IMG/VR virus record: IMGVR_UViG_3300043331_001462
Span: 1 to 40,026 of that record
Source: a virus
Strand: one strand, 5' to 3'
Length of the DNA: 40,026 nt
The notes below the pieces were generated by a model. The model was not told where the DNA came from, made no database searches, and saw only the letters and a program-made list of their open reading frames with translations. The position numbers were made by a program, and so were the translations under genes. This document shows, one piece after another, positions 9,731 through 33,065 of the stretch (positions within the stretch are counted from its first letter, which is position 1; each line of letters begins with the position of its first letter).

Positions 9731-9744
9731 GGGAGGTCACGCGC

Positions 9745-10980: not shown

Positions 10981-11648
10981 AGACCAAGTCCGACCGGGCG
11001 TCGGTCGCCGGGATGGAGCGCCGCGCGTTCCCGGTGCGGCTGGAGGTGCGCGCGGCGGCGACCGCAGGCGGGCCCACCGTCGTCGAGGGATACGCCTCGG
11101 TCACCGACGAGCCCTACGAGATGTGGGACTGGTACGGCGCGTACACCGAGGTCATCCGGGCCGGCGCGTTCGCCAAGACACTGGCGGAAAACCCCGCCGT
11201 GCAGCTCCTGCTCAACCACGGCGGCCTGTCCATGGCCTACACCAAGGCGGGCAGCCTCACCCTGGCTGAGGACTCCACCGGCCTGCACATGCGCGCCGAG
11301 GTCAACCCGGCTCGCGGCGACGTGCAGGACATGCTCGCGGCGCTATCCGACGGCGCCGTCGACGAGATGTCGTTCGCCTTCCGAGTGCCCACCGGCAAGA
11401 GCATGTGGTCGCCGGACTACGACGAGCGGTCCATCGTCGAGGTCGACATGCACCGCGGCGACGTGTCCGTCGTCAACTTCGGCGCCAACCCGGCCACCGC
11501 GGTCGGTGTGCGCGCCCAGGACTTCGACCGGCTCGACGAGGCCGCCGCCCGCGAACTGTACGAGCGGCTCGGCGCCCGCCTGGCCGGCCAGGCCCCGCGA
11601 GGTGACGACCTCGCGCTGTACGAGGCCGAGCTGGCACTGCTCGGCTGA
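10977..11648 (+). CDS. Prohead maturation protease (HK97 / S78 family)
   Basis: VVEGYASVTDEPYEM...EVIRAGAFAKTL...LLLNHGG pattern. Lies between the portal and capsid genes. Confidence 0.9.
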   Translation: MKTKSDRASVAGMERRAFPVRLEVRAAATAGGPTVVEGYASVTDEPYEMWDWYGAYTEVIRAGAFAKTLAENPAVQLLLNHGGLSMAYTKAGSLTLAEDSTGLHMRAEVNPARGDVQDMLAALSDGAVDEMSFAFRVPTGKSMWSPDYDERSIVEVDMHRGDVSVVNFGANPATAVGVRAQDFDRLDEAAARELYERLGARLAGQAPRGDDLALYEAELALLG

Positions 11649-11782
11649 CCTGCCTGCCACACCCCGACGCGCCGGAGCCTGCAGCCGGAGCGCGCCACCG
11701 CGCGCCACCACTGCCGGCCACCACTCGGACGGCCCCACGCAGGCGCGACCCAACCGTTTCCACCATCCGAGAGGGGATCTCC

Positions 11783-16379: not shown

Positions 16380-16598
16380 GTGAAGGTCCGCTCCCCCTAC
16401 GACGAGCCGGTCGACCAGCCGTGGCTCGGCCGGGTGGTCAACCCCGGGCAGGTCGTCGACATCCCCGCCGACCTGCTGCCCAACTTCGTGGCCGCCGGAT
16501 GGAAGCCGGCCGACCCCGAGGCCAGCAAGGCCGCCAAGGAACTGGATGCGGCCGCATCGACCGACGCGCCGGCCGCCGGCGCCACGCAGGAAGGCTGA
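16380..16598 (+). CDS. Hypothetical small protein (72 aa)
   Basis: GTG 16380 lies 9 nt after GAGGAGG. Confidence 0.5.
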   Translation: MKVRSPYDEPVDQPWLGRVVNPGQVVDIPADLLPNFVAAGWKPADPEASKAAKELDAAASTDAPAAGATQEG

Positions 16599-16601
16599 TC
16601 G

Positions 16602-17597
16602 ATGGGCGTCCCCAGCGGTCTGGGCTCCAGCTTCGGGTTCGTGCCGGAGGTCACCTACGGCACGTACGTGGCCCCGACGAGGTGGATCGAGTGCTCGCAG
16701 CCGCAGCTGCGCAAGGTGAAGAACACTGTGCAGGGCGGGGCGATGGCCGCCGGCCGGTACGGCCGGCGCGGCTCCATGCGCAACGTGACCAGCAAGGCCG
16801 GCGGCGGCACCCTCACCACCGAGGTGTTCAACAAGCGGATGGGGCACCTGTTCAACGGGCTGCTCGGCGGCACCGTGACGCCCACCCAGCAGGGCTCCAC
16901 CGCCGCCTACCTGCAGACCCACACGCTGGGCGACTCGACCGGCAAGTTCTACACCATGCAGGTCGGCGTGCCGGATCTGGGCGGCACCGCCCGCCCGTAC
17001 ACCTTCCTCGGCTCGAAGATCACCGCCATCGAGTTCTCATGCGGCGTCGACGAGAACCTCACCGCGGCGGTCACCGTCGACGCCCGCGACGTCACCGAGG
17101 CCGAGACGTTGGCCGCGCCCAGCTACGCCACCGGCGTGGAGGTGTTCCACTTCGGCCAGATGGGCGTCAAGCTGGGCACCTACGACTCCGAGGCGGCCAT
17201 CCAGGGCGTACGGCGGATGACCCTGCGTATCGAGCGGCCGCACCGCACGGATCGGTTCTACGCCAACAACTCCGGCCTGAAGTCCGAGCCGGTAGTCAAC
17301 GACTACATCAACGTGTCCGGCACCATCGAGGCCGACTACATCACCAAGGCCGACCTGGCCGACCGGTTCGCCGCCGACACCTCCACCGCCTTGGTGTGGG
17401 AGTTCATCGGTCCGACCATCGAGTCGCCGCACACTGAGGTGTTCCGCATCCGCGTCCCGATGATCTTCCTGGATGGGGACACCCCCGCCGTGGACGGACC
17501 GGACGTGGTCACCGGCCCCTACAACTTCGTCGGCCTGGACGACGGCACCAACGCCCAGGTGTCGCTCATCTACATGTCCGCCGACACCACCCTGTAG
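16602..17597 (+). CDS. Major tail (tube) protein candidate
   Basis: 331 aa and beta-rich. RBS is GGAAGG. Lies upstream of the chaperone and tape-measure genes. Confidence 0.6.
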   Translation: MGVPSGLGSSFGFVPEVTYGTYVAPTRWIECSQPQLRKVKNTVQGGAMAAGRYGRRGSMRNVTSKAGGGTLTTEVFNKRMGHLFNGLLGGTVTPTQQGSTAAYLQTHTLGDSTGKFYTMQVGVPDLGGTARPYTFLGSKITAIEFSCGVDENLTAAVTVDARDVTEAETLAAPSYATGVEVFHFGQMGVKLGTYDSEAAIQGVRRMTLRIERPHRTDRFYANNSGLKSEPVVNDYINVSGTIEADYITKADLADRFAADTSTALVWEFIGPTIESPHTEVFRIRVPMIFLDGDTPAVDGPDVVTGPYNFVGLDDGTNAQVSLIYMSADTTL

Positions 17598-17599
17598 CC

Positions 17600-18058
17600 G
17601 TGGCCGTGCAACAGGTGGCCGGGCCCAGCCCCCAGCGCATCGCCGTGGCCTACCGCCGCGGCGCCAAGCAGGTGCCGGCGGCCATCCGCCGCGGCTTCCA
17701 GCGCGCCCTCGCGCCACTGGACGCCGAGGTCGCCTCCCAGGTCGACGACAAGTTCCCGTCCGGGTACGCGCCGGTGTTCAACGCCAGCCGAAAGGTCACC
17801 ATCAGCCTGCGCGAGCACGGCGCGCAGGTGACCGCCGAGGCGCGCATCTACGCCACCGGCCAGACCGACCGGCGCAAGGTCACCGACCTCAACCGTGGCC
17901 TGCTGCGCCACCCGCTGTTCGCCCGCCGCGCCCGCTGGTACGCCCAGGCCATCCCGGCTGGCTTCGGCGACCAGGCCGTGCAGGCCACCCAGCCGGGCAT
18001 CAGCCGGGCCATGAACGCCGTTCTGGACAACATCGAACAGACCCTGACGGGAGCGTGA
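17600..18058 (+). CDS. Tail/neck component (HK97 gp10-like features, tentative)
   Basis: 152 aa. The motif LNRGLLRHPLFARRARWYAQ resembles the gp10 family from memory. Confidence 0.5.
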   Translation: MAVQQVAGPSPQRIAVAYRRGAKQVPAAIRRGFQRALAPLDAEVASQVDDKFPSGYAPVFNASRKVTISLREHGAQVTAEARIYATGQTDRRKVTDLNRGLLRHPLFARRARWYAQAIPAGFGDQAVQATQPGISRAMNAVLDNIEQTLTGA

Positions 18059-18450
18059 CCGCGCCAGTGCCGAAAACCCAGATCGCCAAGATGCGGCACC
18101 GGCTGTGCCCGGCCGACCGGGACACCTACGGCGACCCGCCCGGCTCCGACGGCTGGGTGATCTTCGACCCGGACGCGCTGTGCGACCTGCCCGGCTCCAA
18201 GCTGTCCGAGATCGAAAACACCACCGGGTTCCTGATCGCCATGTTCTGGGTGCCCACCCAGCGCTACAGCGCGCTGGGCATGCGCGTCGAGGTGTGGCTG
18301 GCCCGCCGGCTGGCCGGCCTGGTCGACGTGTGGAACGCGTTCGACCCCAAGGTCATGCAGATGGAGTCCGAGAAGATCGACCCGCCTGCCGGCGGTGATG
18401 CCGACCCCCCGGCGCCTGGCTCGCCGCCTGGCTCGCCGGCCGCCCCGTAG
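18055..18450 (+). CDS. Tail assembly chaperone (G-like)
   Basis: GTGA overlap with the upstream gene. Lies directly upstream of the tape measure gene. Confidence 0.65.
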   Translation: MTAPVPKTQIAKMRHRLCPADRDTYGDPPGSDGWVIFDPDALCDLPGSKLSEIENTTGFLIAMFWVPTQRYSALGMRVEVWLARRLAGLVDVWNAFDPKVMQMESEKIDPPAGGDADPPAPGSPPGSPAAP

Positions 18451-18608
18451 CCGCCGCCTACCGCGAGGTCGAGCCGCACTTCACCTACGAGGCCGGGCTG
18501 CCACCCCGCGAGACCCGGCTAATGTCACCGGCCGACATCCGCGGCCACCTGCTGTGGCGCCACCAGCAGATCCAGCAGCGCCAGCTCACCGACCAGCAGG
18601 GGAGGTGA
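18055..18608 (+). CDS. Tail assembly chaperone -1 frameshift product (GT-like)
   Basis: The -1 frame is open over 18399..18608 and encodes a plausible peptide (AWLAAWLAGRPVAAAYREVEPHFTYEAGL...). A candidate slip site C CCC CCG lies at 18405..18411. Confidence 0.45.
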
Positions 18609-18614
18609 CCGCGG

Positions 18615-20633
18615 GTGGCCGAAGAGCTGCGGTACAAGTTCACCGGCGACGGCGGCTCGCTGGCCCGCACGTTGGCCGACACGGCCGACAAGGCCGACAA
18701 GGCCGGCGACGCGCTGGACGACCTGGCCGCCGACGCGGCCAAGCTCGACACCGAGATCGCCACCCTGCGCACCTCGATGCGCGACACCGCCCGCGACATC
18801 GCCCGCACCGCCGACGAGGCCGAACGCAAGAACCTGTTCAAGGTGCTGGCCCAGCAGAAGCGGCAGATGGGCCGGGTGGTCCGGGCCCGCGACCTGATCG
18901 ACTTCACGCCGGAGGAAGTCACCAAGCTCGGCGCGCGGATGGCCGCCGCGCTCGGCGAAGGTGTATCCCGCGCAGGCGGGCCGATCGCCGACGCGCTGGG
19001 CAATGTGTTCGGCGCGCTGCCCCCGCAGGCGCAGGCCGCGATCGGCGCCGGCGTCGTCGCCGCGGTCGCCGCCGCCGCGCCGGCCGCCGCCGCGGTCGTC
19101 ACCGGAGCCGTCTCCGGCGGTATCGCCGCCGGCGGTGTGGCCGCCGGGGTGGCCCTGGCCGCCCGCGACGCCCGGGTCAAGGCCGCCGCCGAAGGCCTGG
19201 GCGACACCATCCTGGACGCCCTGGCCCGCTCCGCCGCGCCGGCCTTCGTGCCTCCGGTGCTCGACGCCATCGCCACCATCCGGGTCGAGGTCCGCGACCT
19301 GGACGACGAGCTGGACGACATGTTCGGCGCCGCCGCCCGCAACGTCGACCCGTTCGTGCGAGGGCTGGTCGGCGGCGCGAAGGCCGCGCTGCCCGGCTTC
19401 ACGGAGGGCCTGGAACGCTCGCACGTGGCCGCTGAGGCCTTCGCCGACGGGATGATCGAACTAGGTGACGCCGTCGGCGACTCCATCGCCCTGATCTCGC
19501 AGGCATCCGCCGGCGGGGGGCAGGCCATCGAGGACCTGTTCGTCATCCTCGAGTTCGGCGTGCGCTCCATCTCCGCCATGATCACCGGGCTGACGTTCCT
19601 GTACGAGGCGCTGCGGTTCGTCACCGGCGGCGCGGCCGCCCAAACTGAGATCATCTCCAAGCATGCGGTCGCCGCGGCCGACGCCAAGAACCCGCTGGAC
19701 GGGCTGGCCGAGGCATTCCGGGGCATCGGCGAGGAGCAGGGTGAGGCCGCCGACACCGCCCGCGAGTTGGACGAAGCCTGGGACGACCTGTTCAACAACA
19801 CGATGTCCGCCGACCAGGCCCTCGTGCGCTACGAGGAGTCGTGGGACCGGCTGATCGAAGAGCTGAACACCGGCAAGAAGACTCTCGACCTGGGCACCGA
19901 GGCCGGCCGGAACAACATGAACGCGGTGCTAGACCAGATCGAGGCGATCAACGGGCTGCGTGAGGCGGGGCTGATCAACGATCAGCAGTACGAGGACCAC
20001 CTCGGAACGCTGCAGGCCACGCTGATCAAGCGCGGGTTCGAAGCCGCCGCGGTGCAGCGGATCATCGACAAGTATCGCAACATCCCGTCCCAGGTGCAGA
20101 CCCTGCTGAAGAACAACGCGGTGCCGGCGACGTCGCGGGTCGAGGAGTACATCCGCAAGCTCGGCGACATCCCCAGCACCCGCACCGTGACCATCATCCA
20201 GCGGCTGGTCCAGAAGGGTGTGCGCATCGCCGGGCTGACCGGCCCGGGCGGTGTCACCGCGTTCAGCAAGGGCGGCGTCGTCGAGGGCCCCGGGCCGCGC
20301 GGCGTCGACTCGGTCCCTGCGTTGCTGGCCCCGCGTGAAGGTGTGCTCACCGAGGCCGGGCTTGAGCGGCTCGGCGGCCCGCAGATGCTGCATGCCCTGA
20401 ACAAGGGCCTGCCGTTGCCGGCCTCGGCGCCAGCCCGATCGAGCGGTCCGCGCCCCCTGCTCGGCGCCCGGGCCACCACGAGCAGCGCCGATCTGACCGC
20501 GCTGGCGCAGGCGTTCGCCCGAGCGGTGCGCGACGAGCTGCGCGGCGTGCAGCTGGCCGTCAACGTCGACTCCCGGCGCGTGGGCGAGGCGCAGGCCAGC
20601 GACGGGTACCGCAAGGCCCGAGGAGAGCACTAA
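18615..20633 (+). CDS. Tape measure protein
   Basis: 672 aa, Ala/Gly-rich and helical. GTG follows GGGGAGGTGA. Position is canonical. Confidence 0.9.
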   Translation: MAEELRYKFTGDGGSLARTLADTADKADKAGDALDDLAADAAKLDTEIATLRTSMRDTARDIARTADEAERKNLFKVLAQQKRQMGRVVRARDLIDFTPEEVTKLGARMAAALGEGVSRAGGPIADALGNVFGALPPQAQAAIGAGVVAAVAAAAPAAAAVVTGAVSGGIAAGGVAAGVALAARDARVKAAAEGLGDTILDALARSAAPAFVPPVLDAIATIRVEVRDLDDELDDMFGAAARNVDPFVRGLVGGAKAALPGFTEGLERSHVAAEAFADGMIELGDAVGDSIALISQASAGGGQAIEDLFVILEFGVRSISAMITGLTFLYEALRFVTGGAAAQTEIISKHAVAAADAKNPLDGLAEAFRGIGEEQGEAADTARELDEAWDDLFNNTMSADQALVRYEESWDRLIEELNTGKKTLDLGTEAGRNNMNAVLDQIEAINGLREAGLINDQQYEDHLGTLQATLIKRGFEAAAVQRIIDKYRNIPSQVQTLLKNNAVPATSRVEEYIRKLGDIPSTRTVTIIQRLVQKGVRIAGLTGPGGVTAFSKGGVVEGPGPRGVDSVPALLAPREGVLTEAGLERLGGPQMLHALNKGLPLPASAPARSSGPRPLLGARATTSSADLTALAQAFARAVRDELRGVQLAVNVDSRRVGEAQASDGYRKARGEH

Positions 20634-20636
20634 GCC

Positions 20637-22667
20637 GTGGACACCTGCGCGTTCGTCGACTCGATCGGCGAGGTGTACGACGACGTCACCGACGCGTTCG
20701 GCGGCAGCGAATCCAGCACCTGGGGAACCACCGACACCGGCCAGGCCTGGTCCAACGACGGCGGAAGCGCCAGCGACTACTCGGTCGGCTCCGGCACCGG
20801 ATCGCTGTCCCTAGGCTCGGTGGCGGTTTCCCGCCGCCCACACCTGGCCGGAGTCAGCGTCGCCGACGCCGACTCCACCGTCACGATCACCGTGCCCGCG
20901 TTGGCCACCGGCGCGTCCATGTCCGTCGGAGTCACCCACCGCTACGCCGACAGCAGCAACCACCTGCGCGCCGAGCTGGTCTTCCAGACCACCAACGACT
21001 TCATCATCCGGCTCGTGCAGGCCTCCACCAGCGGCGGTGCGCAGATCATGGCCAGCTCCGCCGCCATATCCTCCTACACCGCGGCCAGCAGCTGGAAACT
21101 GCGCGCCCAGATCATCGGCCGCCGCTACCGGGCCAAGGCATGGGCGGCGGCCGACCCGGAGCCGGCCGACTGGAACGTCACCGGCCTAGTCACCGACGCC
21201 GCCGTGGTCGCCGCCGCCGACGCGGTCGGAATCCGCGCCATCCGCGAGACCAGCAACAGCAACGGCACCGTGGCGTTCCTTTTCGACGACTTCACCGTCT
21301 CCAGCCCCAGCCAGATCCGCCTCGATCTCAACGACGGCACCACCTGGGGCCTGGACTACCAGGGCACCAGCCTCGACCCGCCGCCACGCAAGTACGTACG
21401 CGCCGGCGGGCTGATGAGCCAAGGGGAGACCATCCCCGCCGGCGCGTACGCCAACCGCACCTTGCGCCTGTCGCTGGGCCTCAACGCCACCAGCCTCGAC
21501 GACATCGCTACGAAGATCCAGCAGCTGCAGCGCGAGCTGGACCGAACCAGCAACGTGCTGCTGTGGCAGCCCGCCGGCGCCACCCACCCGGTCTACTTCC
21601 GCACGCTGTGGTCGGCCGACCAGCAGATGCAGGTGTTCCCCGGCGACGGCCTCTACCGGGAGATCCGGCTCGAGATGCAGGCCGAGCCGTTCGCGTACGG
21701 GCTGCTGCAAACCCTGGACACGGCAACGGTCACCAACAACCCGGCGTCCAGCTGCTACTTCGACCTGGCGGCCGCCGACATCATCGGCGACGTCGAAACC
21801 CCGGCGATCATGACGTTTGCGTACGCCGGCGTGGAGGACATGGGCCCCACCGCGGTCGGGGTCCGCCGCCACGGAACCCCGTCGCTGATGCCCACCACGC
21901 TGCAGTGCGAGGCCATGACCGGCGGCACCGACACCACCATCCAAGCCAACGACGCCGTGATGTCCGGAAGCGGCCAGAACTACATGCGGTGCACCTACGC
22001 CACCGTGGCCGCGACCATGACGGTGCGGCTGACCAGCTCGACGTTCCCGTCCACCCCCGGCGAGGACGTGCGAGGTACGTACCGGGCGTTCCTGCGCTAC
22101 CGCAAGTCCTCCTCGAGCAACCCCATCAACGTGCAGCTGGGCTGGTCGTTCGGCTCCACCTCGGCCAGCAACCGTGAAGTCGCCCTCGCCTCCACCACCG
22201 ACCGCCGCTGGGTCGACCTGGGTCTGCTCACATATCCGTTCGGCGCCGACCCGATCCACGACCTGTCCGGGGTGGAAATCCCTGCCCGCGGCGGCGTCAT
22301 CACCATCTCCGCCCAACGAACCAGCGGGTCCGGCAACACCGACTTCGATGCCATCGTCCTGGTGCCCGCCGACCCGGCCGACGGCTACTGCCTGGTCACC
22401 TGGCCCACCTCGTCGGGCCCCACGCTCGCCGTCCTGGACGGCAACCGGGAGACCATCTACAACCTCGGCGGATCCGCCGAGGTGTACCCGCGCGAGCTGC
22501 CCAACGTCCGCGGCGTCTTCCCGCACTTGACCCCGAGCCAGGATCACCGCATCGTCGTGCTGCTCAATGCCGGCGGCGGCTCCAGCAGCGACGACATCAC
22601 CGACACCGTCGACGTGACCGTCTCGTACTACCCGCGCTACCTGCTCGTACGTCCGGCCACGACATGA
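20637..22667 (+). CDS. Minor tail protein (distal tail, Dit position) with N-terminal lectin-like domain
   Basis: 676 aa, immediately after the tape measure. The N-terminal ~230 aa look like a LamG/ConA-type module. Confidence 0.75.
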   Translation: MDTCAFVDSIGEVYDDVTDAFGGSESSTWGTTDTGQAWSNDGGSASDYSVGSGTGSLSLGSVAVSRRPHLAGVSVADADSTVTITVPALATGASMSVGVTHRYADSSNHLRAELVFQTTNDFIIRLVQASTSGGAQIMASSAAISSYTAASSWKLRAQIIGRRYRAKAWAAADPEPADWNVTGLVTDAAVVAAADAVGIRAIRETSNSNGTVAFLFDDFTVSSPSQIRLDLNDGTTWGLDYQGTSLDPPPRKYVRAGGLMSQGETIPAGAYANRTLRLSLGLNATSLDDIATKIQQLQRELDRTSNVLLWQPAGATHPVYFRTLWSADQQMQVFPGDGLYREIRLEMQAEPFAYGLLQTLDTATVTNNPASSCYFDLAAADIIGDVETPAIMTFAYAGVEDMGPTAVGVRRHGTPSLMPTTLQCEAMTGGTDTTIQANDAVMSGSGQNYMRCTYATVAATMTVRLTSSTFPSTPGEDVRGTYRAFLRYRKSSSSNPINVQLGWSFGSTSASNREVALASTTDRRWVDLGLLTYPFGADPIHDLSGVEIPARGGVITISAQRTSGSGNTDFDAIVLVPADPADGYCLVTWPTSSGPTLAVLDGNRETIYNLGGSAEVYPRELPNVRGVFPHLTPSQDHRIVVLLNAGGGSSSDDITDTVDVTVSYYPRYLLVRPATT

Positions 22668-24307
22668 GCATCCCCATCCCGCTCGCGGTGCGGATCAGCA
22701 ACTCGCGCACCGACGTGCACGTCACCCGCCACGTCAGCGACCTCGTCTACCGCGAAGTCGCCAAGGGTGGCTACTCGTACTGCACGTTCAGCCTGCACCG
22801 CTCATTGCTCTGGCAGCCCGACGAGCTGCAGTACTACTCGCGGGTGTACGTGTACGACGGCTCCGGCTCCGTCGTGTGGGAGGGCCGGCTGGAGGACCTG
22901 GGCCCGGAGGCCGGCTCCAACGGGCACGTGTGGCGCGTCACCGCGATGGGCCCGTCCGCGCACGCATCAGACATCACCCAGCCGCGCATCTGGGTGGATC
23001 GCGACCTCAGCCGCTGGATCAAGGCCCGGTCGGCGTCGCTGGAGCAACAGACCACCACGGTGTCCGCCGGCGACGATCCGGGCGGCTCCGGCGCCGAATC
23101 TCTGGTCCTCAGCTTCCCCACGTCGATGACCGTGCCGACCAACGGCGCCTGTACCAGCTACTACCTGTACATCGAGTACGCCGGACAGGAGCTGGCCGTC
23201 CTGTACTACGCGTGGGACGCCGGCCTGACCTCCGCCGACTGGCGGATCCGTGGCTTCTCTTCCGGCAGCACGGTGGTGCGCACCCAGTCCGCGTCCACCG
23301 CCGGTGGCGCCGCGGCCGCCGACGTCGTCACCACCGACTTCTCCGTCGGTGACAACCGGCCGCTCGTGCAGTTCCGCTGGGAAGGCGCCGCGTCCGGGAC
23401 CGGCACCGGCGACATCGTCTGGGCCAGCATCAAAACCTTGGTCGTACGCGCCATCACCTACAGCAAGAGCGGCTCGAAAATCACATCCGGCTACTCCTCG
23501 GCCGACATCACCATCCTGGCCTCCGACGTGGTCGCGGACCTGCTCGGCTGCGGGATGCTCGACGAATACGACGGCGCCAACGCCGAGATCGACACGACCA
23601 GCTACGCGATCACTCAGCTGGCCGAGCCGGAAGGCACCACCGCCGCGGCTGTCCTCGACCAGCTGATGGAGTTCGAGCCGGCGTACCGGTGGGGCGCGTA
23701 CGAGTCCAACTCAGCTGGCAAGTACCGGTTCCGCTGGGTGCTGTGGCCCAGCCAGATCCGGTACGAGGCCACCACCGTCGATGACTTCAGCTCGCCGGCC
23801 AGCGCCGACCAACTGTGGAACGCCTGCCGGGCCTTCTACACCACCACCCTGGGGCTGCAAAGCGTACGGGTCACCTCCACCGTGCCCGAGCTGGACGACG
23901 CCGGGTTGACCCGCGAGGCGTCGATCACCCTGCCGCCCGGGTCCACTTCGACTGACGCGACCCGCGCTGCGGAAGAGTTCCTCGAAGAGCACGCCCGGCC
24001 GCCGGCCGCCGGCACACTGAAGATCGCCCGGCCGGTCTTCGACCGGATCCTGGGCCGATGGGTGCAGCCGTGGCAGATCGCGGCCGGCGAGCTGATCTCC
24101 GTGCGGGACGTGCAGCCCACCGCCGCCTCGCTGACAGCCACCGCCCGCGACGGTCTTCAGGTGTTCCGCATCGCCTCCCGCGAATACCGGACCAGCGACG
24201 CGGCCGCCACGCTCGAGCTCGACGAGTACTCGCTGTCCACCGCCCGCGCGCTGGCCGCCGCGGCTGCCCCCCGCCGCAAGGGCAAGATCGGCCGAAGGAG
24301 GCTGTGA
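22664..24307 (+). CDS. Minor tail protein (Tal position)
   Basis: 547 aa, with an ATGA overlap to the upstream gene. Confidence 0.75.
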   Translation: MSIPIPLAVRISNSRTDVHVTRHVSDLVYREVAKGGYSYCTFSLHRSLLWQPDELQYYSRVYVYDGSGSVVWEGRLEDLGPEAGSNGHVWRVTAMGPSAHASDITQPRIWVDRDLSRWIKARSASLEQQTTTVSAGDDPGGSGAESLVLSFPTSMTVPTNGACTSYYLYIEYAGQELAVLYYAWDAGLTSADWRIRGFSSGSTVVRTQSASTAGGAAAADVVTTDFSVGDNRPLVQFRWEGAASGTGTGDIVWASIKTLVVRAITYSKSGSKITSGYSSADITILASDVVADLLGCGMLDEYDGANAEIDTTSYAITQLAEPEGTTAAAVLDQLMEFEPAYRWGAYESNSAGKYRFRWVLWPSQIRYEATTVDDFSSPASADQLWNACRAFYTTTLGLQSVRVTSTVPELDDAGLTREASITLPPGSTSTDATRAAEEFLEEHARPPAAGTLKIARPVFDRILGRWVQPWQIAAGELISVRDVQPTAASLTATARDGLQVFRIASREYRTSDAAATLELDEYSLSTARALAAAAAPRRKGKIGRRRL

Positions 24308-27063: not shown

Positions 27064-27104
27064 CGTCGTCCTCCCTGGAGCGGGGCTTCCTCTTTCGCTC
27101 CGAA

Positions 27105-27171
27105 CATTACCCTAGGGTGATAGATTCGTCAACACCCTAGGGTGTTCGGATTATGCCACCCTAGGGTAATG
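27105..27171. promoter_or_regulatory. Three palindromic operators ACCCTAGGGT in a divergent promoter region
   Basis: CATTACCCTAGGGTG (27105..27119), ACACCCTAGGGTGT (27132..27145) and CACCCTAGGGTAATG (27157..27171). The outer copies are mutual reverse complements. Centres are 25 and 24 bp apart. Each copy carries TAGGGT (TANNNT) on both strands. Confidence 0.75.
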
Positions 27172-27179
27172 TCTGGCTC

Positions 27180-27443
27180 ATGGATAAGAGTGCTGTGGAA
27201 CACCTCGCCAAGCAGATCGCTCGGCTGACCAAACTGGCCCCGATCGAGCGGGCCCGGCTGGCCCGCGACCTGGTCGACGTTGCGAAGACCACGCTGGCCG
27301 CGGCCGGCGACGCTGCCGTCGCCGAGGCGGTCGCTGGCAGCTCGTACGCCGAGGTCGCCGCGGCCTTGGGCGTGTCCACCTCGGCGGTCAACAAGGCGGT
27401 CAGCCGACACCGGGCTCGACCCGCCGTAGGCAGTGTGGACTAG
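27180..27443 (+). CDS. Small HTH regulator (87 aa), candidate operator-binding repressor
   Basis: C-terminal HTH is SYAEVAAALGVSTSAVNKAVSRH. The ATG lies only 12 nt downstream of a TAGGGT hexamer, so the mRNA would be near-leaderless. Confidence 0.7.
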   Translation: MDKSAVEHLAKQIARLTKLAPIERARLARDLVDVAKTTLAAAGDAAVAEAVAGSSYAEVAAALGVSTSAVNKAVSRHRARPAVGSVD

Positions 27444-27451: not shown

Positions 27452-27736
27452 TCACTTCGACCGCGCATCCTCGTGCAGCACGTGCAGCTTGTTGAAGATC
27501 CACCGGCCGGTGCGCAGTCGGCGGCCGGTGCCCTTGCATCGCGGGCACCGGCGAAACGCCCGGCCGGTCGGCGAGCGCCGCTTGCCGCTGCCCGCGCACC
27601 GGCGGCAGTTCGCGTACGGCCAGAACCAGCAGGCGATCACGTAGCAGATCGCCCACGCCAGCCCGGCCACCGTCAGGTAGAAGGCGCCGCGGGTCGGGTC
27701 GCCCTGCTGTGTAGCGGTAGCGGCGCTCAACCACAC
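27452..27736 (-). CDS. Membrane protein with DnaJ-type CxxCxGxG zinc finger (94 aa)
   Basis: GTG lies 7 nt after AGGAGG. One TM helix is followed by CRRCAGSGKR...CPRCKGTGRR. Confidence 0.7.
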   Translation of the reverse strand: MWLSAATATQQGDPTRGAFYLTVAGLAWAICYVIACWFWPYANCRRCAGSGKRRSPTGRAFRRCPRCKGTGRRLRTGRWIFNKLHVLHEDARSK

Positions 27737-27881
27737 CGGATGTGCCTCCTGACGGGGGTAGCGGGCCTGCCTGCCGGCGTGCCGCTACGCGCTACACGGC
27801 CGCGTCGGCGCAGGTCAGCGTGCGCGCAGGCCGTAGCGGGGGCTGTAGCGCAGCCGCTACGCCTACCTCGGTGTCCGCTAC
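27711..27881. promoter_or_regulatory. Candidate clt-like locus: 9 copies of GTAGCG/CGCTAC
   Basis: GTAGCG at 27711, 27717, 27758, 27833 and 27844. CGCTAC at 27783, 27790, 27855 and 27876. Lies directly downstream of the translocase gene stop (27888). Confidence 0.55.
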
Positions 27882-27887
27882 ACCGAT

Positions 27888-30041
27888 TCATCGATCCTCC
27901 TCGCTGGTTCGACGCTCCAGTGCGCGGCGCAGCGCGGCCAGATGCACGCCCTTGAGGACCTTGTTGTCGATGCGGACGTTCTTGCTCTCGATGCCCAGGT
28001 TCAGCGAGCGCAGCGTGTTGGAGATCGCGTCCGGGGTGGCGTTGGCGTACCGCTCGGGCAGCTGGTCGGCCATGCGCTCGGCCAGCTGCTGCCACGACAG
28101 AGCGGTCTCGGACGGCAGGAACGCATCGAGAGCATCCGCGAGCGGATCGCGTGCCTGCGCGCCGACCGTCTCGCCGCCGGCCATGCCGTCGAGCAGGCCG
28201 GCCCGCTCGCGCATCCGGCGCGCGGCGTGCAGGATCTTCTCGGCGTCCTGCCCGTCGGCCAGGTAGGTGCGCACGGTGGCGTTGGGCACCGGGGCGTCGT
28301 AGAGGATGCCGACGCCGCGGTACTCGTCGCCGGAGGGCAGCGCGCTGGAGTCGTAGCCCTCGGAGTAGGCGCCGCCACCGAGCACCAGGTCAGAGACCTG
28401 CCAGGCGCCCGTCTTGAGCGCAAAGCGGGTCAGGTGGTTGTCGCGGAAGTCCGTGAACAGCTTGGCCACCTTGCCGGTGGAGCCGATCCCAGACGGACGC
28501 TGAGTGGAGTCCAGCAGGATGACGCCGACCGACGGCCCGACCTTGACCAGGAAGACCAGCAGCTCGGCGATCTCCCGGTCGGTCTCCTCGTCGCCGGTGT
28601 TCAGGTACTCCTGGAACTCATCCAGGACGATCACCCAGACGGGCATGCGGTAGCGCGGGTTGCGGGCGATGTCCCTGGTCAGCTTGCCTTCCGGGCACAC
28701 GTCGGTGGGCAGCTCGGACAGGCGGGCGTTGCGCTGCAGGACGTCGCGCTTGGCGGCGCGCAGGGTGGCGCGCAGGTTCTCGATCGGATCGCCCTGGATC
28801 CGGTCGGGCAACAGCCCGAAGCCGAAGGTGTAGGCGACCAGGGCGAACTTGCGCCAGTCCGGGGAGCCCTTGCCGTCGAACACGGACAGCCGCACGTACG
28901 GATCGAGGGCGGCGAAAAGCGCCAGCAGGCGGGCGGTGAACGTCTTGCCCTTGCGCGGCTGCGCGCCGACCAGCACAGAAGTGAAGATCAGCGGCAGCAT
29001 GACGCGGCGGCCGCGCTCGTCGACGCCCAGCGGCGCGGCCCGCCAGATGTCGCGCGGCTTGCAGTCCAGCAGCGGCGTACGGCCGGCCGGGATGGACAGC
29101 GGGTCGACGTCGGCGACCCACAGCAGGTGCCGGCGCTGGGAGGTCTTGTCCCTGGTCAGGTACACCTGGGACAGCGACACGTCCAGGCCGGAGGCCAGCT
29201 TCTCGCGGGCCTTCATCGCGTCGGAGAACGTCACCCCGTACGGCAGGTCGACCACCACCTGCGATCCTGCGTCGAGCCGGTCGCGGGACATCTTCGACCC
29301 GAACTTGACCTGCTGGCCGGGCTTGTCCGGGTGGCCCAGGCCGGCGGAGTAGTACGCGCGCAGCACCACGTCGGCGTTGAGCACCCGGTGCCGGTTGGTG
29401 ACCACCGCGGCGGACACGATCGGCCGGTCGGCCGGTCGGCCCAGGTGCGCCAGGATCGGCACCAGGACCACCAGGACGACCCACTTCACCCAGCCCGGCG
29501 CGCCCAGCAGCAGCCACGCCACCGCGCCGACCAGGACCAGGACCTCGAGCGCCAACCACACGCCGCGGGCGCCGCGCGCCCGGCGGGCCTCAGTGTGCAG
29601 CTTCACCCACGTCTCGGCGTCGTTCTTGGTCGCCGCGTGCTGGCGCAAGCTGTGCGACTCCATCACCCAGTACCAGGCCAGCTGCCGGCCGGCCAGGCGC
29701 AGCAGCCCGACCACCGCCCACCACGCGGCCAGCAGCAGGTACAGCGGCGAGCGCACGGCGTGGTAGCTGAACCGGTAGCCGGTCAGCTTGGCCGTACGTA
29801 CGCCCGCGCGGCGTACGCCCTGCACGGTGCGCAGGTGCTCCGGGATGACCGGCCGCCGGTCCTGGCGCACCTTGGCCACCGAGTCGACCAGCACCGGCGT
29901 GGCCGGGCCCGGATCGTCGTCCAGGGCGACCTCGAAGCTGGTGTCGTACTCCTCCGGCAACGCCTCCGGTCGCGGCGTCACCTCGCCTGTGTCGGCGGCC
30001 GGCACGGCCACCTCGCGGCCAGGCTCGATCGGCTCGGTCAT
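27888..30041 (-). CDS. FtsK/SpoIIIE-family DNA translocase, TraB-like (717 aa)
   Basis: N-terminal TM helices are present. Walker A is GAQPRKGKT and Walker B is VWVIVLDEFQ. The C-terminus is wHTH-like. ATG 30041 follows AGGGGGCGG, and the longer ORF runs to 30122. Confidence 0.9.
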   Translation of the reverse strand: MTEPIEPGREVAVPAADTGEVTPRPEALPEEYDTSFEVALDDDPGPATPVLVDSVAKVRQDRRPVIPEHLRTVQGVRRAGVRTAKLTGYRFSYHAVRSPLYLLLAAWWAVVGLLRLAGRQLAWYWVMESHSLRQHAATKNDAETWVKLHTEARRARGARGVWLALEVLVLVGAVAWLLLGAPGWVKWVVLVVLVPILAHLGRPADRPIVSAAVVTNRHRVLNADVVLRAYYSAGLGHPDKPGQQVKFGSKMSRDRLDAGSQVVVDLPYGVTFSDAMKAREKLASGLDVSLSQVYLTRDKTSQRRHLLWVADVDPLSIPAGRTPLLDCKPRDIWRAAPLGVDERGRRVMLPLIFTSVLVGAQPRKGKTFTARLLALFAALDPYVRLSVFDGKGSPDWRKFALVAYTFGFGLLPDRIQGDPIENLRATLRAAKRDVLQRNARLSELPTDVCPEGKLTRDIARNPRYRMPVWVIVLDEFQEYLNTGDEETDREIAELLVFLVKVGPSVGVILLDSTQRPSGIGSTGKVAKLFTDFRDNHLTRFALKTGAWQVSDLVLGGGAYSEGYDSSALPSGDEYRGVGILYDAPVPNATVRTYLADGQDAEKILHAARRMRERAGLLDGMAGGETVGAQARDPLADALDAFLPSETALSWQQLAERMADQLPERYANATPDAISNTLRSLNLGIESKNVRIDNKVLKGVHLAALRRALERRTSEEDR

Positions 30042-30217
30042 GACCGCCCCCTGGCCGCGCCCTTGACCGCAGCGAAGCCCAGGTGCACCTGAGCCGGCAG
30101 CAGCAGCAGATCGGGCCGCCACTGGCTACCGGCCTCGGCGTCGGCCAGCAGCTTTGCGGCCGTCTGGGTGTGCTCGTCGGCGGTCATCGCCAGGATCTGC
30201 TCAACGTGTTCGTTCAC
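30038..30217 (-). CDS. Hypothetical small protein (59 aa), not in the ORF track
   Basis: GTG lies 5 nt after GAGGTGA. It has 4-nt overlaps with both neighbouring genes (GTGA and ATGA). Confidence 0.5.
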   Translation of the reverse strand: MNEHVEQILAMTADEHTQTAAKLLADAEAGSQWRPDLLLLPAQVHLGFAAVKGAARGRS

Positions 30218-31020
30218 GGGGTCACCTCGGTCAGGTCCGGGACGTGGCCGTTGACCGGCGTGGCCGGCCGCGTCGCGGCCAGATGGCGGCGCGCGGTGCG
30301 CTCGGACACGGACAGCCGCTTGGCCACGGTGGCCGCGTCGATGGCCGGGTCCTTGGCCACCAACTTGGCCACCAACTTGGCCGTGTCCGTGGCCACCGGT
30401 GGCCGGACAGGTGGCCGCAGCTTGGCCGGCTCGATGGCCACGTGGCCATCCATGGCCACAGGCTCAGATGGCCGCTCGATGGCCACGTGGCCATCCATGG
30501 CCACAGGCTCAGATGGCCGCTCGATGGCCGCGGGCGTGGCCGCGGTGACCGCCGCAGGCGCGGTGTCCGTGGCCACATGGCCGGCCACCGGCTCGCGGTC
30601 CACTGGCCGCCGCCGGCGACTGGTGGCGATTAGCGCGCCCGTGGCCATCACCATCAGGCCGTCGACCGCGAGCGGGCCGATCAACACCGTCAGTCGGTCG
30701 TCGTTGTAGAAGGCCAGCAGCCCGGACAGATGCCGGTACGACACGACGGCGGCAACCCCGGCGACCGGCAGCAGCCCAGCGAAGCGCAGCAGAACCCAGC
30801 GCCTGCCAGCTGGCCATTCGGTCCGCGCAAAGATCTCCACCGCGACGAACAGGGCGAGGGGCCAGAACACGGCACCTACGACCGCGCCGGCCGGGGGCTG
30901 CCATCCGTCCGGCGCGTCATTCGGGGGGACGTACGAGTGGGCCACGTTGGCCGCGATCGACGCCGCGCCACCTAGGAGCGCTCCGAGGTACGCCCATCCT
31001 CGGCCGGTCACGCGGGTCAC
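30214..31020 (-). CDS. DUF2637-like membrane protein with repeat linker and C-terminal HTH
   Basis: VVSYRHLSGLLAFYNDDRLTVLIGPLAVDGLMVMA matches the remembered DUF2637 pattern. The C-terminal HTH is VAKRLSVSERTARRHL. Confidence 0.7.
   Translation of the reverse strand: MTRVTGRGWAYLGALLGGAASIAANVAHSYVPPNDAPDGWQPPAGAVVGAVFWPLALFVAVEIFARTEWPAGRRWVLLRFAGLLPVAGVAAVVSYRHLSGLLAFYNDDRLTVLIGPLAVDGLMVMATGALIATSRRRRPVDREPVAGHVATDTAPAAVTAATPAAIERPSEPVAMDGHVAIERPSEPVAMDGHVAIEPAKLRPPVRPPVATDTAKLVAKLVAKDPAIDAATVAKRLSVSERTARRHLAATRPATPVNGHVPDLTEVTP
30430..30530. repeat. 45-bp tandem repeat x2.2 inside the DUF2637-like gene
   Basis: CTCGATGGCCACGTGGCCATCCATGGCCACAGGCTCAGATGGCCG at 30430..30474 and 30475..30519, plus a partial copy. 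It encodes IERPSEPVAMDGHVA twice. Confidence 0.9.
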
Positions 31021-31292
31021 CGGTCACGCACCTCCTCGACGGGCCGGGTCAGCTGGCGCATGGACACGGCCACGATGATGCAGACCAGGCCGGTCCCGGC
31101 GGCCAGGCAGCCGATGGCCATGGCCAGATGGCCGAGCCCCGCGGCGCCGCCGGCGGACAGCCACGCGCTCGCGAACAACGCGGCCATGACGGCCATCACT
31201 GTGGCCACCGTGACCACGGGGCGGCGGACAGACACTGGCCGGCCGCCGGACAGCTGGCCGCGCTCGGCGGCCTTCACACGCACATCGGTCAT
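31017..31292 (-). CDS. Membrane protein (2 TM, 91 aa), first gene of the transfer operon
   Basis: ATG at 31292. GTGA overlap with the next gene. Confidence 0.6.
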   Translation of the reverse strand: MTDVRVKAAERGQLSGGRPVSVRRPVVTVATVMAVMAALFASAWLSAGGAAGLGHLAMAIGCLAAGTGLVCIIVAVSMRQLTRPVEEVRDR

Positions 31293-31377: not shown

Positions 31378-31626
31378 ATGAGCCAACTCGCGAGACTTGG
31401 GGGTCGATCGGTGCCGGACGACGAGGAGTGGATCCCGGTGGGGCAGGCAGCGCGCCGACTGGGCCTGCACCCAGACAAGGTGCGTGCCCTCGCCGACTCC
31501 GGTCAGATTCGCTCTTGGCGGCCGCCCACCACCGGCCCGGGCCATGCACACCGGCGAGTGAGCTCGGCCGACGTGGAGCGCATCCGCCGAGAGATGCTGG
31601 GTGACCAGGGTGGAAGCCCCACCTGA
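31378..31626 (+). CDS. Excisionase-family (MerR-like) HTH protein
   Basis: WIPVGQAARRLGLHPDKVRALADSGQIRSWR...HRRVSSADVERI. An alternative GTG start at 31411 follows GGGGG. Confidence 0.7.
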   Translation: MSQLARLGGRSVPDDEEWIPVGQAARRLGLHPDKVRALADSGQIRSWRPPTTGPGHAHRRVSSADVERIRREMLGDQGGSPT

Positions 31627-31639: not shown

Positions 31640-32548
31640 TCAATCATCCCAAAGAGACGCACCCCGCGTCCGGCCATGGCCGGACGCGGGGGTGCATTCT
31701 GTGTGTGCGTGTGTCCTGCAGAGGGCTACGCGACGGCGGGGAGCGTGCGGACGGCTAGTCGACGCTCCTCGCTGCTCACCTGGGTGTACCGCTCCGTCGT
31801 GTGCGATCGACGCGTGACCGAGAATCTCCTGCGTCGCGCGCAGGTTGCGCGAGCGGCGGTACGTCTCGCTGCCGCACCAGTGCCGCAGCATGTGCATCGT
31901 CACGTCTCGGAAGCCGAGCCGGGTCAGCTGGCGGCTGCCGTACATCGACAGCTTGTGCGCAGCCACGTGCGGCTCGTACCCCGGCAGGTGGAAGATCCGA
32001 CCGAGCGGCAGCGGCTCGACGAGGTGCCAGACCACCGGGTGCGTAGGCACCTCGCGCACCTTGTCGCCCTTGCCGCGGATCCACATCGACTCTTCGGTGA
32101 CGTCCTCCCGATCTAGGGTGACGATCTCCAGGCAGCGCAGGCCGGCGTACGCCGCGAGCCCGAAGTACGTCCGGTAGGGCGCCACCGCACGCCGCATGAT
32201 CTGGCCCAAGGCGGCGGTCGTCACCGGCCGCGGCGGAGGCTTCGGCACCCGGATGCGCGGCAGGCCGACGGACGGGTCCTGGTCGACCAGGCCCATCGTG
32301 AACTTCCACCGGCACCAGGCCTGGATGTGGAACAGGTACACGGCCCTGGTCGCGCGAGACAGACCAGGACGGGCCAGCCAGCTGGCCAGCCGTTGTGTCG
32401 TGGTTGCAGCGGGGTCGGTCCCCAGATACGTCGAAATGGCCCGGACCACTCGGGTCCGCGCCTGGATCGTTCTGGGTGACTGCCCTGCCGCTCGGAGGTG
32501 CTCTACGTGCACAGTCAGGTGCTCGGGAGCACAGCGAAGGGCTTCCAT
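31640..32548 (-). CDS. int: Tyrosine recombinase / integrase, apparently frameshifted before the catalytic Tyr
   Basis: RGKGDKVREVP, HMLRHW and LGHASIA lie in the main frame. The canonical continuation TTERYTQVSSEERRLAVRTLPAVA* lies in another frame (stop 31726..31728) after one extra nt near 31799..31804. Confidence 0.8.
   Translation of the reverse strand: MEALRCAPEHLTVHVEHLRAAGQSPRTIQARTRVVRAISTYLGTDPAATTTQRLASWLARPGLSRATRAVYLFHIQAWCRWKFTMGLVDQDPSVGLPRIRVPKPPPRPVTTAALGQIMRRAVAPYRTYFGLAAYAGLRCLEIVTLDREDVTEESMWIRGKGDKVREVPTHPVVWHLVEPLPLGRIFHLPGYEPHVAAHKLSMYGSRQLTRLGFRDVTMHMLRHWCGSETYRRSRNLRATQEILGHASIAHDGAVHPGEQRGASTSRPHAPRRRVALCRTHAHTECTPASGHGRTRGASLWDD
31660..31694. terminator. Bidirectional hairpin between convergent genes
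   Basis: CACCCCGCGTCCGGCC at GGCCGGACGCGGGG(G)TG, about 16-bp stem. Followed by a TG-rich tract at 31699..31714. Confidence 0.65.
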
Positions 32549-32578: not shown

Positions 32579-32938
32579 TTATGCCGCGTTTGGCCAGGCG
32601 TCGCCACCCGGTCGTACCAGGTCGGATCGCCTAGGTGGCCTAGTTGCGCTACGTGCGCCAATCGCAGCGGAGCGTAGCCAAGAACTAGTACGTACGCCTC
32701 GGTACGCAGTCCGTCTGTCTGTGAGTTCGTCCCGCGTGGGCAAGAGGTCTTGGACCTCAACTCCCAGCTCGCTGGCGATGCGCTCCAGGTCGTTGAGGTC
32801 GATCGCCTGCCGGCCGTTGAGGCGATAGGACACCCACGCGTTGGAGACGTTTAGGCGCCGAGCGAGCTGCTGCCCTGTGATCCGGCGCCGGGCCATCATG
32901 GCCCGGATTTCTTCCGCCACTAGATCCGTAAGAGCCAT
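32579..32938 (-). CDS. XRE-family HTH repressor (CI-like position)
   Basis: The start was chosen by alignment to the divergent paralog (MALTDLVAEEIRAMMARRRITGQQLARRL...). The ORF is open up to 33010. The last ~50 codons have poor GC3. Confidence 0.7.
   Translation of the reverse strand: MALTDLVAEEIRAMMARRRITGQQLARRLNVSNAWVSYRLNGRQAIDLNDLERIASELGVEVQDLLPTRDELTDRRTAYRGVRTSSWLRSAAIGARSATRPPRRSDLVRPGGDAWPNAA
32774..32806. repeat. 33-bp inverted repeat, arm 1 (partner 33204..33236)
   Basis: GGCGATGCGCTCCAGGTCGTTGAGGTCGATCGC is the exact reverse complement of 33204..33236. Confidence 0.9.
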
Positions 32939-33065
32939 AGGTCTATCCGTCGGTGTGGTGGTCATACCGCGATGTTCGGCCGTCTGGACGTAACCGTCAA
33001 GGTGATTCACAAAATCTTGGCATCAGTCTCTTGACGGCTTTAGCTATAGCGTAAACCATGGCGCT

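Follow-up and report, generated by a model that had tools for sequence, protein, structure and literature searches.

A Tra translocase operon with a putative clt site in a temperate tailed phage of a filamentous actinomycete

The virus record IMGVR_UViG_3300043331_001462 from IMG/VR (positions 1 to 40,026 of the record, 40,026 nt in total, here called the window; all coordinates refer to this whole stretch) is the genome of a temperate tailed phage with genes for terminase, portal, major head protein, tail, integrase and repressor. The host of this 39.9-kb phage is a filamentous actinomycete. On its minus strand, the window encodes an operon of five genes whose largest product is an FtsK-like ATPase, here called Tra. 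In the light of all comparisons made, this operon is probably a module of the kind found in plasmids and in the integrative and conjugative elements of actinomycetes (AICEs), composed of Tra and a clt-type cis site, that moves double-stranded DNA (dsDNA) and has become a stable part of a temperate siphophage genome. To our knowledge, TraB-type conjugation is the only system that moves unprocessed dsDNA between bacterial cells by means of a single translocase. It has hitherto been regarded as a property of plasmids and AICEs. A wider proposal is made more tentatively: Temperate phages of filamentous actinomycetes may have repeatedly and stably acquired Tra and clt from AICEs and, with them, a second route of spread that is free of virions and relaxase, leads from hypha to hypha and over cross walls and owes its specificity to a few wing residues of Tra (e.g. 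residue 695) that diversify by lineage.

The five minus-strand open reading frames (ORFs) between 31292 and 27452 reported by a first-pass annotation of this DNA were all found in place (Table 1), and the 4-nt start/stop overlaps among the first four genes could be verified (GTGA at 31017, GTGA at 30214 and ATGA at 30038). The fourth gene encodes Tra, a protein of 717 amino acids (aa). The transmembrane helices, Walker A and Walker B motifs and winged-helix-like C-terminus ascribed to it are all present: Hydrophobic segments span residues 99-118 and 157-203 (long helices comprise residues 73-201 in the structural model), Walker A reads AQPRKGKT at 360-367 and Walker B reads VLDEFQ at 472-477. 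The residues of both Walker motifs are invariant over 30 family members. BLASTP aligns Tra with TraB of the Streptomyces plasmid pSVH1 at 31% identity over 359 aa (E 9e-28), and tblastn against 72,556 plasmids yields 56 records, 51 of them from Streptomyces, with pSVH1 among them. More than 1145 homologues with up to 90% identity are present in the protein database. Tra proteins of AICEs share 52-57% identity with the window protein over the full length. Judged by these identities, the ATPase belongs to the Tra clade of canonical AICEs. The question whether it sides with plasmid TraB or chromosomal FtsK is answered in favour of the transfer proteins, and its earlier designation as a TraB-type translocase agrees with its homology to pSVH1 TraB, its orthology to AICE Tra and the clt-like array that adjoins it. 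The attribute 'Streptomyces-type' from the first-pass annotation holds for the homology to TraB but not for the hosts of the relatives, which are rare actinomycetes (Micromonosporaceae, Streptosporangiaceae, Pseudonocardiaceae) instead of Streptomyces.

The predicted fold is in line with this assignment. An AlphaFold model built with 30 family members (pLDDT 77) shows long helices at the N-terminus, a core of RecA type and a small domain at the C-terminus. In Foldseek, the core matches FtsK motor domains (E 6e-14, probability 1.0), followed by TcpA, a conjugative coupling protein, and EccC. A sequence search of the PDB with the ATPase found no match. Residues 630-717 modelled alone reach a pLDDT of 90 and adopt the topology beta-alpha-alpha-alpha-beta-beta-alpha, with the winged helix at 633-716; the Foldseek matches listed for this segment are mostly winged-helix domains, at weak E-values of 0.02-0.2. 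Membrane anchor, FtsK motor and winged helix follow each other in Tra, so that the domain order equals that described for TraB. Two longer Tra homologues (P0019 and P0056, about 1065-1093 aa) match LAGLIDADG_3 (PF14528), which suggests an intein within the ATPase.

Immediately downstream of tra, the first-pass annotation had pointed out a repeat-rich gap. The repeats are real and far above chance: Seven exact copies of the 7-bp word occur within 171 nt, compared to about 0.06 expected (Poisson P 9e-13), and the remaining 39.8 kb of the window hold 15 copies. The array starts 7 nt past the tra stop codon and lies in the 151-nt gap and the first 26 nt of the following gene, with the last two copies sitting inside the 5' end of this 94-aa gene. 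A polarity reminiscent of FtsK-orienting polar sequences (KOPS) was considered for the copies outside the array and discarded. All 14 of 14 CCGCTAC words there have the same orientation, but 11 of 12 within called genes lie in the frame NNC-CGC-TAC of plus-strand genes, and this shared codon frame accounts for the skew as a codon effect. Related 7-mers display the same skew in weaker form.

Arrays of this kind are a general property of the family. When k-mers were counted for each homologue over the 280 nt that follow its stop codon (pSVH1, used as control, yielded CCCGGA eight times), nearly all 141 loci with a full-length homologue were found to repeat one word, in about 4-12 copies. The word depends on the lineage, and at least seven are in use: GGTAGCG, GGTCGCG, GGTAACG, GGAACG, TGCCGCG, CGCGATC and GTAGAGG. 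When this region was aligned for six cassettes, three from phages and three from AICEs, the columns without variation coincided almost exactly with the GTAGC/GCTAC words, which occupy eight conserved positions; the spacers between them have diverged. In pSVH1, the GACCCGGA repeats begin directly past the traB stop codon, which is the position of the window array. The known clt sites of the plasmids pWTY27 and pJV1, to which Tra binds, also consist of 7-9-bp repeats arrayed next to the 3' end of tra or overlapping it (PMC3583192). By position, composition and conservation, the window array behaves as a putative clt.

Repeat word and protein vary together. Mutual information between repeat class and residue was calculated over 560 alignment columns for 46 sequences with GGTAGCG versus 40 with GGTCGCG. 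The top column, which corresponds to window residue 695, separates the two classes perfectly: All GGTCGCG sequences have Ala there, and none of the GGTAGCG sequences does. Four of the five top columns (hypergeometric P 1.4e-3) and seven of the top ten (P 5.6e-5) fall into residues 642-717. The repeat class switches at least eight times on the tree and is, therefore, not a single inherited split. Residues 688, 694 and 695 are located in the beta-hairpin wing of the model, whereas the specificity of pSVH1 TraB has been assigned to helix alpha3 (PMC3583192). The covariation indicates, indirectly but specifically, that the C-terminal domain probably reads the repeats, as experimentally demonstrated for pSVH1 TraB.

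These data bear on the proposal that the ATPase was recruited for a phage-internal or competitive task such as excluding superinfection, assisting the entry or packaging of the genome, or disturbing the segregation of the host chromosome. FtsK-like translocases without an assigned role do occur in many lytic phages (PHROG_1358, Streptomyces phages, cluster J mycobacteriophages), and the ATPase itself matches PHROG_1358 'FtsK/SpoIIIE-like protein' at E 1.4e-17. In a group of phages whose Tra is 29% identical, tra abuts the terminase gene, and in the window, the operon lies on the lysogeny strand together with int and cI. In pairwise comparison, no relationship to these phage translocases was detectable at E 1e-5. 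A survey of actinophages for the operon, as recommended by the first-pass annotation, was successful for uncultivated phages, dozens of whose contigs carry it, but not for isolated ones: Neither megablast of the operon nor tblastn of the ATPase (threshold E 1e-5) against 50,697 phage records found a match. With more distant family members as queries, only the motor of Streptomyces phage Gilgamesh and of Bacillus phages was matched, at 23-27% identity. Since no isolated phage has a homologue at E 1e-5, the ATPase does not fall among phage ATPases without a transfer function. Furthermore, the array is self-encoded, lineage-specific and in coevolution with the winged helix, which speaks for the DNA of the element itself as substrate, and none of the operon proteins matches a PADLOC defence model. 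A phage-internal or competitive task is, thus, considered improbable.

The genomic surroundings of Tra were compared at 80 of 211 loci from species-representative genomes, 56 IMG/VR contigs, one metagenomic contig (L001) and four plasmid records. ORFs were called anew and clustered, and cluster representatives were annotated with Pfam and PHROGs; the context classes rest on these annotations. In this way, 71 loci were classified as AICE and 33 as phage (phage hallmark genes, i.e. for terminase, portal, capsid, endolysin or tail, within 10 kb of Tra) and 37 were left unclassified, with at least two AICE-scored loci (L125, L132) being truncated copies of a phage. The 80 genome loci all belong to mycelial actinomycetes, among them Micromonospora, Actinoplanes, Dactylosporangium, Plantactinospora, Nonomuraea, Actinomadura, Streptosporangium and Longispora. 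At 66 of these 80, the order is divergent GntR gene, small gene, NUDIX, DUF2637-type membrane protein, DUF3307, Tra and 90-aa Zn-protein, followed by Prim-Pol or a DUF3987 helicase or DUF3631 or AAA_25, an Xis-like gene, an integrase of 400-470 aa and host genes. This is the canonical AICE architecture. The same cassette is present on NZ_CP107792, a closed 18.4-kb Streptomyces 'plasmid' that, according to its NCBI annotation, is an excised AICE. Two loci required separate judgement. L002 from Plantactinospora, with host genes 2.5 kb downstream, was tried as an AICE, but shares clusters with phage-type loci and was left unclassified. The best match in the plasmid database, from Nonomuraea gerenzanensis, was suspected to lie in the published element PhiNon1; its locus has the AICE gene layout.

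On phage genomes, the cassette occupies at least three different backbones. In the first arrangement, to which the window belongs (L003, L004, L063, L089, L091-L099, L104-L108, L111), integrase, small genes, DUF2637-type gene, Tra and sometimes the Zn-protein gene meet the end of a convergent late operon that encodes endolysins and large tail proteins of PHROG_5313/24476. In the second (L118-L135, Tra about 29% identical), Tra is located between replication genes and the genes for terminase, portal, protease and capsid, and the downstream repeats lie just upstream of the terminase gene. The third is represented by pPaSha2 of Pseudonocardia alni Shahu, a cultured isolate. At four loci with a phage-like layout and a Tra of the same clade (L100, L101, L104, L106), a large serine integrase (PHROG_95, E 1e-66) replaces the tyrosine integrase, meaning that the cassette travels with different integration modules. 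Two further loci, L146 and L148, whose Tra is 67-78% identical to that of the window, encode a TraG/VirD4-like coupling protein (PF02534/PF12696, 567-596 aa; 5886-7589 in L146 and 7479-9269 in L148) 0.7-2.4 kb upstream of Tra. One of them lies in a metagenome-assembled genome of Pseudonocardiaceae, and L148 also carries a gene with a P22 antirepressor domain.

The closest relative, L001, is syntenic with the window. Tra is 90%, the integrase 89% and the Zn-protein 80% identical; tail and early genes show about 60% and cI 54% identity. Either constraint or exchange seems to act on the int-tra block as a whole. An independent Logan contig has an identical Tra protein and tra region. One might imagine that an AICE and a phage were joined in error during assembly of a metagenomic contig, since AICEs and prophages can be tandem neighbours at tRNA sites, but such a chimera has next to no chance of being the correct explanation: The contig closes on its 97-nt overlap, a syntenic relative comes from an independent sample (L001), a separate Logan assembly contains the tra region without any difference, the closed circular replicon of a cultured strain (pPaSha2) has the same arrangement, and dozens of IMG/VR contigs repeat it. 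The recurrence in dozens of phages, the Logan contig and L001 also argues against a fresh non-functional insertion. The cassette is a recurrent phage component and not a one-off capture.

Another reading is that the cassette is a passenger, either what is left of a decaying AICE or a nested element brought by recombination to a place beside the phage integration module, and is of no benefit to the phage. In a neighbour-joining tree, the Tra context changes between AICE and phage at least eight times over 104 classified leaves, which means that exchange is frequent; integration machinery is common to AICEs and prophages; and the contrast between an int-tra block at about 90% and a remainder at about 60% identity to L001 would fit a recently exchanged block. 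In the same tree, phage-borne Tra proteins group into a few separate clades that use repeat words of their own, and the phage-borne copies are of full length with intact Walker motifs and repeat array. The cassette is found in the same slot, between lysogeny genes and convergent lysis/tail genes, in phages with unrelated tails. It is accompanied neither by a second integrase nor by AICE rep or regulator genes, and the cluster of the short window integrase is restricted to phage-type or unclassified loci and never found in AICE-scored ones. The window shares only the transfer module with AICEs. For these reasons, there is little likelihood that the operon is a mere passenger.

The remaining operon genes encode small or membrane-bound proteins. 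In the 91-aa product of the first gene, two hydrophobic segments were computed, in agreement with its description as a protein with two transmembrane segments; in L001, an 89-aa gene occupies this slot. The 268-aa product of the second gene had been described as a DUF2637-like membrane protein with a helix-turn-helix (HTH) domain. The membrane segments were found, and both domain matches of the window copy are sub-threshold (DUF2637 at E 7e-4 and 19.9 bits with a cut-off of 22.8, HTH_11 likewise). In relatives, the proteins encoded in this slot reach 4e-17 and 4e-12 against DUF2637. Homologues of the 268-aa protein were detected by tblastn at 28 loci, and an annotated DUF2637 gene adjoins FtsK in pPaSha2 and in one AICE. 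Both in AICEs and in phages, the protein is conserved as a partner upstream of Tra, and it is a candidate for a functional analogue of the Spd proteins. Its identification as SpdB2 was tried and rejected for lack of any sequence similarity. Its gene includes a stretch of 45 nt that is perfectly duplicated in tandem, with the 18-nt palindrome GATGGCCACGTGGCCATC in each copy. The CACGTG core of GATGGCCACGTGGCCATC resembles sps, to which SpdA binds on Streptomyces plasmids, but an sps/SpdA-like site was dismissed: The duplication is confined to the window and the identical Logan contig and absent from other relatives including L001. The 94-aa protein encoded downstream of tra, for which a membrane zinc finger had been claimed, indeed contains two CxxC pairs besides a single hydrophobic segment, and matches DnaJ_CXXCXGXG at E 6e-5, below the Pfam cut-off. 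A homologue was found by tblastn at 91 of 139 loci. A scan for sigma-70 promoters between 26.9 and 33.2 kb returned no sites, which carries no information in an actinomycete of high G+C content.

The most likely scheme, drawn from the analogy to TraB of pSVH1 and to the clt sites of pWTY27 and pJV1, is as follows. Tra would assemble into a hexameric membrane pore and dock on the repeats of the circular phage genome, irrespective of whether the latter is excised, replicating or plasmid-like. It would then pump dsDNA into a neighbouring hypha or over septal cross walls without a relaxase or a type IV secretion system; the claim that genes for both are missing holds within the scanned proteins. 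(Pfam-type scans covered part of the window proteins, with some small ORFs outside them.) Co-transcribed with Tra, the DUF2637-like HTH protein, the 91-aa protein and the Zn-finger protein might take a Spd-like role. Alongside packaging, the phage genome would, thus, gain virion-free spread and could re-colonise compartments that lost it.

Several observations weigh against a transfer module as described here. The ATPase has no Pfam match even at E 10, FtsK_SpoIIIE (PF01580) included. PF01580 scores 46 bits with pSVH1 TraB and 26.6 bits with the 29%-identity phage group; AICE orthologues likewise lack a precomputed Pfam match, and the profile does not define TraB. None of the accessory proteins is detectably homologous to named Spd proteins (SpdB2 was compared). 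This missing similarity is weak evidence against a Spd-like role, since spd genes, which are organised in operons with overlapping start and stop codons, are too diverse for recognition by sequence (PMC4447253; PMC4170104). By tblastn, the 91-aa protein has no detectable homologue in the loci of relatives, and the 59-aa ORF has none at any locus and is missing from L001. The 94-aa protein was compared with the 'RRQRL Zn-binding protein' that adjoins Tra in Streptomyces AICEs, and no similarity was found. GntR/Kor and NUDIX/Pif control genes, present in AICE-type loci, are absent from the window, and no window protein falls into the Prim-Pol, DUF3987, DUF3631 or AAA_25 clusters, nor did Pfam detect one among the proteins scanned. 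The repeats of the second phage arrangement could serve packaging instead. A naive compartment that receives a phage genome could simply be killed by this delivery. Finally, the integrase gene is frameshifted in the window copy, and the element may, therefore, be defective.

The integrase frameshift is due to a 1-nt insertion near 31802 (31795-31810), five codons upstream of the catalytic tyrosine, where the window reads GATCGCACACGAC and L001 GATCGC-CACGAC. Deletion of one base restores a 273-aa integrase that ends with LGHASIATTERYTQV... like the intact integrase of L001. The insertion may be a real inactivation or an assembly error. On pPaSha2 (L140, CP052773), the integrase gene at 16450-17520 is split over two frames, one for the N-terminal and one for the catalytic domain, and is annotated with 184 aa. 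Consequently, both circular Tra-carrying phage genomes examined have broken integrase genes.

It is in this respect that a function in maintenance or segregation only has to be discussed, in which extrachromosomal prophage copies are pumped over cross walls and sporulation septa of the same mycelium, compartments and spores thereby retain the element, and no transfer between individuals takes place. Both circular extrachromosomal examples with their broken integrases would need a plasmid-like stability function. No partition (ParAB) or plasmid replication functions were found among the scanned proteins, with 33-39 kb and 2-6 kb largely unannotated, and plasmid spreading itself has been argued to be a stability function (PMC4170104). 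Against this, plasmids and AICEs rely on the same protein family for inter-mycelial transfer, the integrase of the close relative L001 is intact, and many phage-type loci are integrated prophages that need no segregation help. Moreover, maintenance is mechanistically a subset of a transfer function and not a true alternative. As sole function of the operon, it is judged rather unlikely.

Table 1. Features of the window around the tra operon and of the phage backbone (dot, no strand).
Feature	Position	Strand	Remarks
Phage packaging and head module	8159..13276	+	PHROG matches
Large terminase	8159-9730	+	PHROG_9, E 1e-63
Portal	9727-10980	+	PHROG_12, E 2e-34
Major head protein	11783-13276	+	PHROG_2263, E 1.5e-50
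Tail module	16602..24307	+	homologous tail genes also in L001, L098
Minor tail protein	16602-17597	+	
Tape-measure-like protein	18615-20633	+	
Tail proteins	20637-22667 and 22664-24307	+	
Three copies of palindrome CACCCTAGGGTG	27104..27172	.	116-nt gap between divergent genes 27180-27443 (+) and 27063-26887 (-)
87-aa HTH protein	27180..27443	+	convergent on tra operon; sub-threshold Sigma70_r4_2 and HTH_23 matches
94-aa membrane protein, conserved downstream partner of Tra	27452..27736	-	one transmembrane segment, two CxxC pairs
clt-like cis site	27711..27881	.	7 exact GTAGCGG/CCGCTAC and 2 GTAGCG, both orientations
Tra/TraB-like dsDNA translocase, 717 aa	27888..30041	-	N-terminal transmembrane helices, FtsK-fold motor, C-terminal winged helix
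59-aa ORF	30038..30217	-	translationally coupled at both ends; not conserved
268-aa DUF2637-like polytopic membrane protein, C-terminal HTH	30214..31020	-	at least 3 hydrophobic segments
45-nt perfect tandem duplication inside DUF2637-like gene	30429..30518	.	each copy with 18-nt palindrome GATGGCCACGTGGCCATC
91-aa protein, first operon gene	31017..31292	-	two hydrophobic/transmembrane segments
Excisionase-like HTH protein	31378..31626	+	divergent from tra operon; HTH_17 E 8.5e-6, PHROG_66 excisionase
Tyrosine integrase, frameshifted	31726..32548	-	Pfam and PHROG matches
CI/Cro-type repressor	32579..33010	-	Pfam and PHROG matches

The phage backbone confirms the earlier description for the most part. 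A 97-nt terminal repeat, in which the end copies the start, gives a circle of 39,929 bp with a G+C content of about 71%, and the terminase, portal, capsid and tail genes are present. Lysis genes, which had been reported as well, could not be substantiated: Neither an endolysin nor a holin match was obtained among the window proteins scanned. The terminase matches 1212 phage records; with only 33% identity to that of the nearest isolated phage, the window has no cultured close relative. The three CACCCTAGGGTG copies next to the tra operon look like an operator set that is distinct from the CI-type repressor region at 32.6-33.0 kb. Two genes for other enzymes were observed, a family-2 glycosyltransferase resembling chitin synthase at 35812-37251 (Glycos_transf_2 2e-18, Chitin_synth_2 5e-16) and an Eco57I-type N6 DNA methyltransferase at 679-2052 (8e-15). 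The following about 3.8 kb (2050-5850) contain no ORF with the strong third-position G+C bias typical of the remaining genome, and comprise a perfect 33-nt tandem repeat (2.4 copies, 5404-5481).

If the proposed transfer function is correct, prophages, plasmid-prophages and AICEs form a continuum in mycelial bacteria, and lysogeny could spread through a colony or to neighbours without lysis. Should integrase-type phages of rare actinomycetes routinely carry a working Tra and clt, they would have a route of spread that is immune to receptor-based or virion-directed resistance. Prophage surveys in which FtsK-like genes are labelled "AICE" or "hypothetical" would then misjudge the mobility of the elements. 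In addition, a natural series of pairs of winged helix and 7-bp word would become available for the study of how FtsK-like pumps read DNA, and tools for DNA delivery into antibiotic-producing actinomycetes that are hard to manipulate might be derived from the elements. The mechanism itself is a sound extrapolation rather than a surprise; it is the prevalence of the cassette and the existence of a culturable test system, pPaSha2 in Pseudonocardia alni Shahu, that give the idea its value for further work.

Among known systems, pSVH1 of Streptomyces venezuelae is the experimentally studied counterpart. Its TraB has transmembrane segments, an FtsK-like motor and a winged helix, is 31% identical to the window Tra, and is encoded downstream of small membrane-protein genes in an overlapping operon, with a repeat array right after the stop codon. 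Differences concern the repeat, an 8-bp TraB recognition sequence (GACCCGGA) there and GGTAGCG in both orientations in the window, the upstream proteins, which in the window are unrelated to SpdB2, the PF01580 match, which the window Tra lacks, and the carrier, a 12.6-kb plasmid versus a 39.9-kb phage. Closer in sequence are the Tra proteins of Prim-Pol-type AICEs from rare actinomycetes and Streptomyces: The full-length identity of 52-57% refers to L007-L086 (Micromonospora, Nonomuraea, Actinoplanes), and the identity to Tra of NZ_CP107792 is about 31%. AICEs share with the window the DUF2637-type gene upstream, the 90-aa Zn-protein gene downstream and repeats at the same positions. In contrast to the window, they measure about 9-24 kb, have no virion genes and carry GntR, NUDIX, Prim-Pol/DUF3987/DUF3631 and the 400-470-aa integrase, none of which the window contains; the window has terminase, portal, capsid and tail genes instead. 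The FtsK-like translocases of lytic actinophages and Bacillus phages (PHROG_1358; Gilgamesh, Mischief19, cluster J mycobacteriophages) have the FtsK/SpoIIIE-type ATPase core in common with Tra, but show no pairwise similarity at E 1e-5 (relatives of the window Tra reach 27% over the motor) and no link to AICE Tra. Chromosomal FtsK and SpoIIIE, whose gamma domain reads KOPS and SpoIIIE recognition sequences (SRS), respectively, agree with Tra in the motor fold and in a C-terminal winged helix that reads short DNA words; they are only about 16% identical to it, and the window words are clustered in one 171-nt site instead of being dispersed and polar.

Phage-borne transfer functions have precedents in the plasmid-phage pZL12 and in the SpdB2 homologues of phiC31 and VWB. 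The Streptomyces plasmid-prophage pZL12 (phiZL12), about 90 kb in size, is partitioned by ParAB and a singleton, whereas the window is a 40-kb integrase-type phage from a non-Streptomyces lineage; the two were compared by description only. A passage on pZL12 in PMC3583192, which cites Zhong et al. 2010 (J Bacteriol 192:3747), states that its transfer requires a tra gene. The window contains both phage genes and a tra homologue with a putative transfer function. pZL12 was not among the phage records that match pSVH1 TraB. For phiC31 and VWB, only a SpdB2-like protein is reported, in a source that mentions no Tra or clt; conversely, the window has a translocase and a clt-like site, but no SpdB2 homologue. 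In full-text searches of the literature, no report was found of an AICE-orthologous Tra with clt inside integrase-type siphophages of rare actinomycetes, of a recurrence of Tra and clt over dozens of phage genomes, or of a lineage-specific pairing of repeat word and wing residue. The nearest parallel in a cultured strain is pPaSha2 (CP052773). It was deposited as a plasmid, and no description of it as a phage or conjugative element was found; its Tra is about 30% identical to that of the window, and it uses another repeat word. As annotated, this closed 41.9-kb circle encodes capsid, HK97 protease, portal, terminase, Bet and holin. Distant homology to the window counterparts exists for portal, terminase, capsid and cI, and int, small genes, DUF2637, 'cell division protein FtsK' and a small gene follow each other in the window's order.

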